This document shows positions 42,636-62,838 of a DNA stretch of 64,000 nt, piece after piece (the stretch's first letter is position 1; every line of letters begins with the position of its first letter). Origin of the DNA: Nitrosopumilus sp. Lineage in GTDB: Archaea > Thermoproteota > Nitrososphaeria > Nitrososphaerales > Nitrosopumilaceae. A program made the translations under genes and the position numbers. The stretch is taken from the NCBI GenBank assembly GCA_965249555.1, contig OZ252243.1:1152001-1216000 (forward strand). The letters are read 5' to 3'. The notes below the pieces were generated by a model. The model made no database searches and was not told where the DNA came from. It saw only the letters and a list, made by a program, of their open reading frames with translations.

Positions 42636-42636
42636 G

Positions 42637-42711
42637 TAGCGGGGAGTAGATTTGAACTACTGATTTGCGGGTTATGAGCCCGCCGGGATGACCTGACTTC
42701 CCCACCCCGCT
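42637..42711 (-). tRNA. Initiator tRNA-Met (CAT)
   Basis: AGCGGGG..GCGGG CTCATAA CCCGC..GTTCAAATC..CCCCGCTA; A1-U72 pair and three G-C pairs in the anticodon stem. Confidence 0.97.
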
Positions 42712-42763: not shown

Positions 42764-44063
42764 TAACTATATGTGAATACAAAAAGAAGGAATTCAGATA
42801 GCATAGGAAATGAATCTAATTCCAGGGCTCGTAATCCATCGTCCTCAAAGAAACAGATTAGGGTAAAAAAAGACAAGGGCATGTATATTGGCATTGACTT
42901 GCACAAGAAATTTCTTCAAGTAGCAACAATGGATAATGACGGAAAGATATTACAAAACATAAAAATTGAGAACACTCATGAATCAATCAAGAAACATTTT
43001 ACAGACATACCAATTCATGCCAATATTGTCATGGAGTCATCATCAGTTTGGTATGGCACGTATGGATTTCTTACAGATGAATTGGGATACAAAAACGTAA
43101 ACACTGTCAAACCCATATCTTACAAAAGCAATAGCTGCATCAAAAAAAACAGACAAGATTGATGCCAAGATACTAGCCAGATCTTTTGCGTGGAGGATAC
43201 ATGCTATGTTCCAAACAAAAAAATAGTAAAACATCGTCAACTGGTAAGATACAGAAAAAAACTCATTCAGTGGAGAACCTCTCTCAAAAATTCTGTTCAT
43301 GGAATTTTGTTACAGGAGGGAATCAAGATATCAGGAGTCACGTTCACTGTAACATACAACAGAAAACTCATGTCACTAGGTGACTGTCGCATAGATGGAT
43401 TTGTACGACAGATAGACTATCTTAATCTGCAAATTGCAGAGATTGATTCAAGAGTGTATGCTGCTGTAAAGACCAGTCCTGATGCCATGATAATAAAATC
43501 AATACCCGGAATTGGTGATTACGCATCACTAGTTATCGCATCAGAAATTACAGATATTAACAGATTCAATGACTCTCACAAGTTATGTGCATATGCCGGA
43601 GTCGTACCATCAGTTAGAAACTCTGCAGATTACATCATGGCTGTATAACCAAAAGGGAAAGCATGACACTACGATGGGTTCTTACTCAATGTGTCCATAC
43701 TCATACAATACATGCCAAGAACAGTGACATTACAAAATTTTACAATCGCATTAAAAAGAAGAGAGGCTCATCAAAAGATGTAGTTGCCGCATCATCCCAG
43801 ATCCTGCGAGTGATTTACTGGATGCTAAAAGAGAGAATTTGTACAGAATTACAGTTAGGACTGCAAGTCGCGTTATGATTAGTGAGGGACAAGCCTCGGT
43901 CAATAACTGCGAATAATCCTAACAAAGGGATGAAGATAGCATTGAGGGACAAGCCTAGTATGGATACATGTCCGTCATCTTTTGATTGAAAACCTTCTCT
44001 AGCGAAAGATATGCCTTGGGATGCCAAAAAGTAGGAAATGTATAAAAACAATTCACATGGATA
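42764..44063 (+). mobile_element. IS110-family (IS1111-type) element, copy 1, frameshifted transposase
   Basis: YIGIDLHKK, MESS, KTDKIDA, SIPGIG, YAGVVPSVRNS; subterminal IRs ATGTGAAT/ATTCACAT; about 200-nt 3' non-coding region. Confidence 0.92.
43859..44050 (+). ncRNA. Putative bridge RNA/seekRNA of IS110 copy 1
   Basis: Two hairpins TGAGG-GACAAG-CCT (43883-43896, 43943-43956) inside larger internal loops; second loop carries TATGGATACAT, matching the element's right end. Confidence 0.7.
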
Positions 44064-44282
44064 ATCTTAGGAACACTTCATCAAAGTGTTCAAAGACCGG
44101 AAGGTGATTTGAATAGAAGGCAAAGATTCCAAGATTTGGCATAAAACAAGAGTTTCAAGAGATATTGTGATGAGAATGAAAAGAAAAAATTTACAAGGAG
44201 GTAATCATAAAAATGTGGTATTGTGTCTAATGTAGAAGTATATTAGTCCAAAAAGATAAATAGTTTTTTTAGTTAAAATTGT

Positions 44283-61504: not shown

Positions 61505-62838
61505 TATGTATCCATGTGAATTGTTTTTATACATTTCCCACTTTTTTGCATCCCAAGGCATAGCTTTCGCTAGGGAATGCTTTCAATCAAAAGATGACGG
61601 ACATGTATCCATACGAGGCTTCTTCCTCAATGCTATCTTCATCCCTTCGTTAGGACCTATCCGCAGTTATCAACCGAGGCTTGTCCCTCAACATCTAAAA
61701 CGCGACTTGCAGTCCTAACTGTAATTCTGTACAAATTCTCTCCTCTCTTTTAGCATCCAGTAAATCACTCGCAGGATCTTTGATGATGCGGCAATTGCGG
61801 CCTTTGATGAGCCTCTCTTTTTCTTAATGCGATTGTAAAATTTTGTAATGTCACTGTTCTTGTCATGTATTGCATGAGTATGGACGCATTGGACAAGGAT
61901 CCATCGTAGTGTCATGCTTCCTCTTTTGGTTATGCTGCCATGGTGTATCGTGTCTGCAGAGTTTCTAACTGATGGCACGACTCCTGCATATGCGCATAAC
62001 TTGTGAGAGTCATTGAATCGGTCAATATCTGCAATTTCTGATGCGATAACTAGTGACGAGTAGTCACCAATTCCTGGCATTGATTTTATTATCATGGCAT
62101 CAGGACTGGTCTTTACAGCAGCATACACTTTTGAATTAATATCTGCAATTTGCAGATTAAGATAGTCTATCTGTCGTACAAATCCATCTATGCGATAGTC
62201 ACCCAGGGAGGTGAGTCTTCTGTTGTATGTTACAGTGAACGTGACTCCTGGTATCTTGATTCCCTCCTCAACAAAATTCCATGGACAGAATTTTTGAGAG
62301 ATGTTCTAAACTGAACGAGTTTTTTTCTGTATCTTACCAGCTGGCGATGTTTTACTATCTTTTTGTTTGGAACATGGCATGTTGCAATGTATCCCCCGCG
62401 CAAAAGATCTGCCAGTATCCTGGCATCAATCTTGTCTGTCTTCTTTTTTGATGCAGCTATTGCCTTTGTAAGATACGGGTTTGACAGTATTACGTTTTTG
62501 TATCCCAATTCATCTGTAAGAAATCTATACGTGTTATACCAAACTGATGATGATTCCATGACAATGTTTGCATGAATCGGTATGTCTGTAAAATGTTTCC
62601 TGATTGATTCATGAGTGTTCTCAACTTTTATGTTTTGTAATATCTTTCCGTCATTATCCATTGTTGCCACTTGAAGAAATTTCTTGTGCAAGTCAATGCC
62701 AACATACATGCCCTTGTCTTTTTTTCCCCTAATCTGTTTCTTTGGACTTTTCTTTGAGGACGATGGATTACGACTCCTGGACTTGGGTTCATTTCCTATG
62801 CTATCTGAATTCCTTCTTTTTGTATTCACATATAGTTA
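61505..62838 (-). mobile_element. IS110-family (IS1111-type) element, copy 2, frameshifted transposase
   Basis: ORFs 62230-62829 (YVGIDLHKK, KTDKIDA) and 61715-62128 (ITKRGS); same IRs and 3' non-coding region as copy 1. Confidence 0.93.
61520..61714 (-). ncRNA. Putative bridge RNA/seekRNA of IS110 copy 2
   Basis: Homologous to 43859-44050 with the same two-hairpin layout. Confidence 0.7.

Follow-up and report, generated by a model that had tools for sequence, protein, structure and literature searches.

The window analysed here comprises 64,000 nucleotides of a Nitrosopumilus sp. genome (GenBank assembly GCA_965249555.1, contig OZ252243.1, positions 1,152,001 to 1,216,000 of the forward strand); the whole genome, referred to below as G000, amounts to 2.23 Mb in one contig. 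Window positions 43859-44063 are the final 205 bases, a right-end non-coding region, of a 1.3-kb repeat (window 42764-44063) that starts with TA followed by ACTATATGTG and finishes with CACATGGA followed by TA. This repeat, copy 1, is 89.8–93.8% identical to 11 other aligned copies, and a second copy, copy 2, lies further along the window on the opposite strand. Just 7 bases separate the left end of copy 1 from the GTG start of a broken transposase (tnp) frame, the stop codon of which (43856-43858) is followed by about 185 bases up to the right end, and 8-bp subterminal inverted repeats lie 7 (left) and 3 (right) bases inside the element ends. We consider it very probable that the region is the bridge RNA (seekRNA) gene of a decayed insertion sequence (IS) of the IS110 family, with an IS1111-type layout, in a Nitrosopumilus-like archaeon.

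Two near-identical hairpins, TGAGGGACAAGCCTCG and TGAGGGACAAGCCTAG, stand 60 nt apart in the non-coding region, each within an internal loop. An earlier note, made from the letters of the window, had picked out these hairpins, and they are present at the positions listed in Table 1. It had further observed that loop 1 differs between the copies (ATGATTAG / GTCAATAAC in copy 1 versus TTAGATGT / GTTGATAAC in copy 2), that the 3′ strand of loop 2, TATGGATACAT, is the same in both and equals the right junction CATGGATACAT of copy 2, that GATTA of copy 1 is complementary to its right-junction TAATC (44062-44066), and that both left junctions read TAACTATATGTG. All of this was confirmed, and the TA core that the note had proposed is borne out by the unoccupied sites described below. 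Its overall reading, an archaeal IS1111-type bridge RNA, agrees with the IS110-family protein encoded by sister copies, the IS1111-like layout and the covariation of both loops.

The 8 nt on the 5′ side of hairpin 1 are the reverse complement of the sequence adjoining the right end of the element, and the bases on its 3′ side repeat the left-flank sequence, followed by TA and AC. Guides and flanks were collected from 22 G000 copies found by pattern search and from 74 Nitrosopumilaceae loci in relatives; copies are named by their G000 position (193k, 282k, 709k and 2,219,980), and L-numbers denote labelled loci, mostly in relatives. The 5′ guide was scored against the right flank as the best of three registers, with permutations treated identically. 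Every row was kept, including some 3′-strand rows in which the left end belongs to a nested element and which were counted against the hypothesis.

G000 holds nine distinct loop-1 5′ strands, and its 21 pairs of 5′ strand and right flank gave 127 matches against a permuted mean of 107.4 (standard deviation, s.d., 4.5). With the relatives added (64 unique pairs, 30 distinct guides) there were 404 matches against 277.0 (s.d. 9.0, maximum 313), and when each guide was represented by one pair, its first occurrence (n=30), 181 against 121.5 (s.d. 6.0). For the 3′ strand and the left flank, 59 unique pairs gave 192 matches against 93.1 (s.d. 9.2, maximum 136). In each of the four tests 0 of 20000 permutations reached the observed value; since the copies share descent, these counts overstate independence and are not true probabilities. 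Covariation between loop 1 and the insertion sites, which the earlier note had named among the checks to be made, was thus found.

The strong cases of retargeting are sister copies. The intact 709k copy has the 5′ strand TGGTATGT (7/8 against its right junction A-CATACC) and the 3′ strand GTTGATAAC (5/5 against its left junction GGTTGA-TA-AC). In the intact 282k copy, the 5′ strand ATGATTGT fits the right junction A-CAATCAT at 8/8 and the 3′ strand TTTTTTAAC fits the left junction ATTTT-TA-AC at 4/5. The 5′ strand of the third intact copy, 193k, TTATATGT, fits A-CATATAA at 8/8, and that of 2,219,980, GTAATTAG, fits TAATTAC at 7/7. The targets predicted from the 709k and 282k guides are GGTTGATACATACC and GATGATTTTTACAATCAT, respectively. 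Furthermore, in two close relatives AAACATAT occurs with ATATGTTT and AAACACAT with ATGTGTTT, so that a one-base change in the guide is mirrored in the target. These results support loop 1 as the predicted target-binding loop, covarying with insertion sites, and lineages within one genome differ in their loop-1 sequences and occupy different sites that fit them.

The two window copies are weaker examples. Natural retargeting within the genome, which the earlier note had deduced from them, holds mainly through the sister copies, and the window copies themselves bear it out poorly (right and left flanks, 6/7 and 0/5 for copy 1, 4/8 and 2/5 for copy 2). Copy 1 is dead, because its open reading frame (ORF) is in three pieces and one pair of hairpin 2 is broken; it is an inactive relic of a minor guide class, xxxxxxAG with GTCAA, that is common to three copies. 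The 7/7 fit of its class-mate 2,219,980 indicates that this class is a real retargeted lineage. Among 40 other genomes of the genus the right flank of copy 1 had no counterpart, chance-level matches only, and since its empty site was not found, the TA core there is taken from the sister copies. An exchange of guides between copy 1 and a copy at 1,248k was considered, as the 5′ guide fits the 1,248k right flank at 7/7; the reverse fit of the 3′ guide needs a shift of 1 nt, and the idea was dropped.

Copy 2 is nearly intact, and its guide is mismatched to its own site, TA-CATAC, which is the target of the main guide class. It may have been inserted in trans by the RNA of a sister copy, or by half-matched insertion, such as has been reported for IS621 (10.64898/2026.08.31.748434), or its guide may have been altered later. 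As both copies are relics, the result for the window itself is modest. The earlier suggestion that a recombinase be rebuilt from the two copies has become unnecessary, with three intact genes present in the genome.

An alternative is that the loop-1 differences between the window copies reflect mutational drift in dead copies instead of working, redirecting guides. That both copies are broken and fit their own flanks badly speaks for drift, as does the failure of the TTAGATGT class to fit any of its known flanks. However, guide variants recur at several loci (three copies with xxxxxxAG/GTCAA, four with TTAGATGT) and so were inherited through transposition or duplication and did not arise in place; the intact copies 282k, 709k and 193k carry different guides that fit their own sites, as does the class-mate of copy 1; and none of the permutations matched the data. 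We therefore regard drift as improbable.

Besides the shared descent of the copies, several observations weigh against working, retargeted guides. Of the 64 unique pairs of guide and right flank, 17 score 5 of 8 or below. Most G000 copies combine a good right match with a poor left match, and a left-junction match of 4–5 of 5 was seen in only two of nine G000 copies; the 3′ guide of copy 1 is the poorest in the 3′-strand table. The TTAGATGT class (four copies, copy 2 among them) scores 4, 4 and 5 of 8 against its three known right flanks and so fits none of them, and from one guide class to another the 5′ guide changes its register against the core by up to 2 nt. Finally, there is no sign of recent activity, because near-identical copies are absent (pairwise identity 87–97%) and 49 exact main-target sites are present in G000.

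From the stop codon on, every copy folds into two stacked modules, each consisting of a basal stem, an internal loop and a UGAGG-N6-CCUCG hairpin. The fold was derived with RNAalifold from an alignment of 24 diverse sequences, four from G000 and 20 from relatives with transposases 52–86% identical. It comprises 24 pairs in five helices, 10 of the 24 pairs showing compensatory changes; three of these belong to hairpin 2, which forms helix 5. Standard pairs occupy 98.8% of cells, a value that falls to 33.5–47.1% when the partners are slid by 1–3 columns. For four of five measures none of 500 shuffles matched the observed value; for the fifth, further pair types, 173 of 500 did. The folding that had been proposed as a second check thus yields a two-module structure with compensatory support. 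Four pairs are mostly G-U or U-G (in 21, 20, 24 and 24 of the 24 sequences), which means that the structure fits only an RNA from the transposase strand.

A covariance model built from the 24-sequence alignment (R1) has 24 matches in G000 and finds matches in 19 of 121 sampled genomes of the family and 8 of 27 genera, G000 counted. Against Rfam with E up to 10, the only match was at chance level (RF02631, opposite strand, E 1.8, 13 bits where the gathering score is 52), and at gathering scores the whole window gave nothing besides tRNA. Within G000 a column has on average 5.25 and 5.0 deviating copies in the two guide strands of loop 1 versus 1.85 elsewhere in the RNA: the guide strands of loop 1 are its most variable part, and loop 2 is invariant.

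The hairpins might also be recognition sites in DNA or for protein, or terminators, with the protein alone choosing the site and no guide RNA involved. Their position directly after the stop codon, where a terminator could be placed, and the conservation of their stems would suit this. We nevertheless consider it very unlikely: the unpaired sequences on either side of the hairpins change together with flanks and element ends, the compensatory changes and G-U pairs work only in an RNA of the transposase strand, and the protein family has been shown to use such RNAs (PMC11208160; 10.1101/2024.04.26.591405).

Loop 2 goes with the ends of the element. Its 3′ strand reads (T)ATGGA-TA-CA, that is, the last five right-end bases followed by the core. 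Of 83 unique copies, 80 could be scored, and in 79 of them the 3′ strand (ATGGAT or ATAGAT) and the right end (CACATGGAT or CACATAGAT) are concordant; the remaining one is unclassifiable, and none is discordant. In the 5′ strand, ATAGC goes with the left end ACTAT and ATGGT with ACCAT in 58 of 64 copies (6 discordant); the pairing with the left end is short, 4–5 nt. The covariation supports loop 2 as the predicted donor-binding loop.

Unoccupied sites define the core. On its left side the 709k copy adjoins 259 bases that form the end of another repeat, an IS66-family element of 1.45 kb with a 449-aa ORF (PF03050, DDE_Tnp_IS66, E 5e-41; G000 1089400-1091100, L101). Of 34 blast rows, 31 show the end of this IS66-family element uninterrupted, as GAAGGTTGATACATAC. 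The row for the 709k copy shows it split at TA, with GAAGGTTGATA before the split, ACTATATG... after it and CATAC following the far end of the inserted element, which places the insertion at a single TA that lies 5 bases inside the tip of the IS66 terminal repeat. Likewise, the flanks of 282k align to an unoccupied paralogous site (G000 287231) with an overlap of exactly TA. These unoccupied sites with a single TA confirm the TA core. Contigs from four DNA runs (Logan), compared with the 709k copy, held no circle junction or empty-site joint among fragmented repeat contigs; a single contig had one internal joint (1932 to 2741).

That the ends were set wrongly, so that the matching flanks are element sequence and reflect an internal inverted repeat rather than target recognition, is likewise very unlikely: CATAC does follow the right end in most copies, as conserved element sequence would, but it is the tip of the IS66-family terminal repeat, uninterrupted without the element in the 31 rows just mentioned, the two 282k flanks abut on the unoccupied site with one TA, and beyond about 8 nt the flanks differ between copies.

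In some relatives the two junctions disagree at the second core base, with TA to the left of the element and TT or TG to its right, and the T alone may be invariant. In one relative genome, the loci L045-L057, L068 and L070 have TGC-TA-ACTAT as their left junction and AGA-TT-GATTCAT or AGA-T-GATTCAT as their right junction; their target is an IS66-like terminal repeat, ...TGCTTGATTCATACC. The second core base of these loci is donor-like at the left junction and target-like at the right, which hints at the position of strand exchange.

The coordinates of the features of both window copies are collected in Table 1.

Table 1. Features of copy 1 and copy 2 in window coordinates.
Feature	Position	Strand	Evidence or remark
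Left TA core copy	42764..42765	.	Target- or element-derived; one TA per empty site in sister copies
Body of decayed IS110-family element, copy 1, 1296 bp, ACTATATGTG...CACATGGA	42766..44061	+	End-to-end similarity to 8 other G000 copies
Left subterminal inverted repeat ATGTGAAT	42773..42780	+	Reverse complement of ATTCACAT; kept in all copies retaining the left end
Transposase pseudogene, three frames (42773-43162, 43190-43648, 43663-43878)	42773..43878	+	Intact 371-aa version in sister copies
Predicted bridge RNA core, target-binding then donor-binding loop module	43850..43986	+	R1 132.2 bits, E 4.9e-26, G000 1195850-1195986
Loop 1 5′ strand ATGATTAG, RTG-like, predicted to pair with top strand right of core	43875..43882	+	Reverse complement CTAATCAT against TAATCTT: 6/7
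Hairpin 1, TGAGG-GACAAG-CCTCG (TGAGGGACAAGCCTCG)	43883..43898	+	Helix 3 of the RNA structure
Loop 1 3′ strand GTCAA-TA-AC (GTCAATAAC), LTG-like	43899..43907	+	Left target half, core and first two left-end bases; against actual left flank TCTGT 0/5
Loop 2 5′ strand AAGATAGCAT, RDG-like	43933..43942	+	ATAG(C) predicted to pair with (A)CTAT of left end
Hairpin 2, TGAGG-GACAAG-CCTAG (TGAGGGACAAGCCTAG)	43943..43958	+	1 of 5 pairs broken: A at 43957, C in other copies
Loop 2 3′ strand TATGGATACA, LDG-like	43959..43968	+	Final five right-end bases and TA, then CA
Right subterminal inverted repeat ATTCACAT	44051..44058	+	Reverse complement of left repeat
Right TA core copy	44062..44063	.	Sequence
Right target half ATCTTAG	44064..44070	+	Sequence
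Copy 2, both TAs included	61509..62838	-	One frameshift; open frames of 201 and 196 codons
Predicted bridge RNA core of copy 2	61586-61723	-	R1 137.9 bits, G000 1213586-1213723

A tRNA-Met gene (window 42636-42711, minus strand) lies 53 bases to the left of copy 1 on the opposite strand; no link between this gene and the insertion site of copy 1 was found. About 21 bases inside the right end, at window 44040-44049, is an A/T-rich box (GTATAAAAAC), the position of which is kept in all relatives (L045, L059, L072, L090, L091 and L098). The box could be a candidate archaeal TATA box firing outward, across the junction of a circle, into the transposase gene, and it would then play the part in archaea that junction promoters have in bacterial IS110 elements.

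Whole-genome blastn gave 43 matches in G000, nine of them end to end, both window copies included. An intact frame (373 codons; 371 aa from the GTG) is present in 3 of 12 long copies: 193k (+), 282k (-) and 709k (+). The synonymous divergence (dS) of these three genes is 0.12–0.15 and the ratio of non-synonymous to synonymous divergence (dN/dS) is 0.23–0.31, indicating that the transposase gene was kept under selection in several lineages. The intact sister protein (L009:1510-2622) matches PF01548 (DEDD_Tnp_IS110; 88.1 bits, cut-off 29, E 6.9e-25), PF02371 (Transposase_20; 74.8 bits, cut-off 21.3, E 7.2e-21) and the NCBI equivalog NF033542, ‘IS110 family RNA-guided transposase’ (224.6 bits, cut-off 140), as well as the IS621 and ISCro4 structures (E 1.5e-11). 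In the ISCro4 alignment, GID, the E of MES, the D/D of TDKID and the Ser of RNSA stand opposite GID, the E of MEA, TDAVD and the S of ESG, the roles of the catalytic residues being those described for IS621 (PMC11208158). By these matches the protein is predicted to be an RNA-guided transposase of the IS110 family (DEDD + Ser). Its Ser motif is G-V-V-P-x4-S-A, the described form being G-L-x-P-x4-S/T-G.

Six copies consist of the final ~500 bases only, that is, the end of tnp, the bridge RNA region and the right end (G000 56611, 1558338, 1584120, 1839073, 2075037 and 2219668). All six are fused at one identical base, equivalent to window 43562 (query base 863), to the end of another IS-like repeat, ...GACGATTTCGTATGGG joined to AGATTCAATGAC, and the matching 5′ part stops at that base at G000 1239168. 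The fusion is either a hot spot for the other element or a composite that spread.

The predicted main target is the terminal inverted repeat of the IS66-family element. The target site reads GAAGGTTGA-TA-CATAC, and about 31 unoccupied IS66 ends are present in the genome. The exact 12-mer GTTGATACATAC occurs 49 times, and only the 709k copy sits in an otherwise intact IS66 end. Three copies (G000 729404, 2071120 and 2210592) have a common left junction, ...CGCACAAATCAA-TA-, at a point ~24 bases into the IS66 terminal repeat and oppositely oriented; a TAGC left-end variant is found in two of the three. Their right flanks do not carry on the IS66 sequence, which makes a rearrangement or a carried-along fragment likely. 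A second sub-family of the element (guides TTCACAT / AAACTA), present in relatives, is inserted in the left end of the first, AACTA-TA-TGTGAAT, with a left guide match of 4–5 of 5 (L039, L042-L044, L067, L069, L075 at positions 1296-1500, and L083-L088). Sub-families of the element thus appear to target each other.

Insertion of this kind has a parallel in IS4321/IS5075, which reportedly insert into Tn21-type terminal repeats; there, insertion is likewise described as site-specific and at a fixed distance from the tip of another mobile element's terminal inverted repeat. Unlike in that case, an archaeal IS of the IS66 family serves as the host element here, and the second sub-family in relatives targets the left end of a sister IS.

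Complementarity, covariation across copies and genomes, single-TA empty sites, covariation in the RNA structure and the protein family are what directly supports the bridge RNA; from them we infer production and binding of the RNA, a circle intermediate and the strand-exchange chemistry as follows. The RNA would be read on the transposase strand, from the stop codon of tnp onward. Excision by the DEDD/Ser recombinase would yield a circle in which the ends of the element meet as right end–TA–left end (RE-TA-LE), and the RNA would bridge this junction to a matching target, insertion leaving TA on both sides. In loop 1, the 5′ strand would pair with the top strand to the right of the core, and the 3′ strand, which has the sequence of the left target half, TA and AC (the first two IS bases), would pair with the bottom strand. 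In loop 2, the 3′ strand carries the final five right-end bases and TA, and the 5′ strand would pair with (A)CTAT of the left end.

The two bases that follow the core are each those of the other partner, since the AC in loop 1 equals the first IS bases and the CA in loop 2 the first bases of the main target. The match of the loop 2 CA / CAT to the target holds in the main G000 class and in some relatives (L084 type, L072 and L060) and fails in the retargeted L027, L029 and L038. AC and CA may tentatively be likened to the handshake guides of IS621, but on the other guide strand; we keep this reading tentative because the loop-2 match is lost in retargeted lineages.

A joint reading of the data, which we find on balance rather doubtful, is that these elements form a distinct Nitrosopumilaceae clade of IS1111-like bridge recombinases. 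They would share a compact, two-fold symmetric RNA, the target loop of which would have diversified to give dozens of working specificities (the loci examined contain 30 distinct guides). As these would be aimed mostly at the ends of other ISs, sister elements included, the outcome would be a network of RNA-guided mutual parasitism. Two rules might then depart from those of IS621: the guide register, relative to the cut site, may be flexible by 1–2 nt, and the handshake may lie on the bottom strand, which would imply an opposite order of strand exchange. Ill-fitting copies such as copy 2 would be trans-guided insertions.

Bridge (seek) RNA recombinases are studied as programmable tools for genome rearrangement, and their guide rules come mostly from a few bacterial elements. 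The archaeal family described here may serve as a natural experiment, with many guide variants on one conserved scaffold, each with its own insertion sites, and with intact genes present. For ammonia-oxidising archaea, insertion into the terminal repeats of other ISs would limit damage to host genes and may disable competitors.

Collectively, the layout of the element resembles that of the IS1111 seekRNA elements ISEc11, ISPa11, ISKpn4 and ISPst6 described by Siddiquee et al. (10.1101/2024.04.26.591405). As in that description, the predicted RNA lies downstream of tnp, the inverted repeats are subterminal, the guide for the top strand lies 5′ of that for the bottom strand, with matches overlapping in the target or at the core, and close relatives have different targets. 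In contrast to those elements, the host is an archaeon, the transposase has 371 aa against the stated 330–350 aa, and the Ser motif is SA against SG/TG. The short core common to target and donor, without a long target duplication, is that of the IS110 family. Because the guide order, the RNA in a right end that is longer than the left, downstream of tnp, and the 8-bp subterminal repeats agree with the definition of the IS1111 subgroup, which includes subterminal inverted repeats of 7–17 bp (PMC11208160), the element would belong to IS1111 by structural definition.

The bridge RNA of IS621 (Durrant et al., PMC11208160; Hiraizumi et al., PMC11208158) is described as having a target-binding and then a donor-binding internal loop, as here, and in each loop, as described by Durrant et al., one strand pairs with the bottom strand to the left of the core and the other with the top strand to the right, the core included, again as here. 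Both recombinases are of the DEDD + Ser type; the protein identity to IS621 is low (the match is split into two stretches totalling 47 bits). Unlike IS621, the RNA here lies in the right end and not the left, the order of guides within each loop is reversed, and the core is T(A) and not CT. The extension that corresponds to the non-cognate partner stands here on the strand that would pair with the bottom strand (AC in loop 1, CA in loop 2); in IS621 it is beside the top-strand guide (PMC11208158).

The closest named or annotated proteins in a plasmid collection searched by tblastn are haloarchaeal IS110-family transposases, the best with 37.2% identity, and ISHvo9 of Haloferax volcanii with 32.5%; these matches are labelled just ‘IS110 family’, a label that does not separate the subgroups. 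R1 had no match on the ISHvo9 locus (best E 2.8), and the non-coding regions of ISHvo9 look unlike the RNA described here. A search of one literature collection returned no paper on bridge RNAs of Nitrosopumilus or other Nitrososphaerota, and the papers naming Nitrosopumilus together with IS110 are, by title and abstract, not about guide RNAs. Bridge RNAs predicted for the elements of ISfinder are given in Supplementary Table 5 of PMC11208160, and archaeal elements may already be among them. Covariation of natural guides and targets across orthologues was already used by Durrant et al. (PMC11208160), so natural retargeting is known in principle; the novelty lies in the hosts, an archaeal family, in the family of RNAs, in how many guide variants occur within one genome and clade, and in an insertion habit directed at the ends of other ISs.

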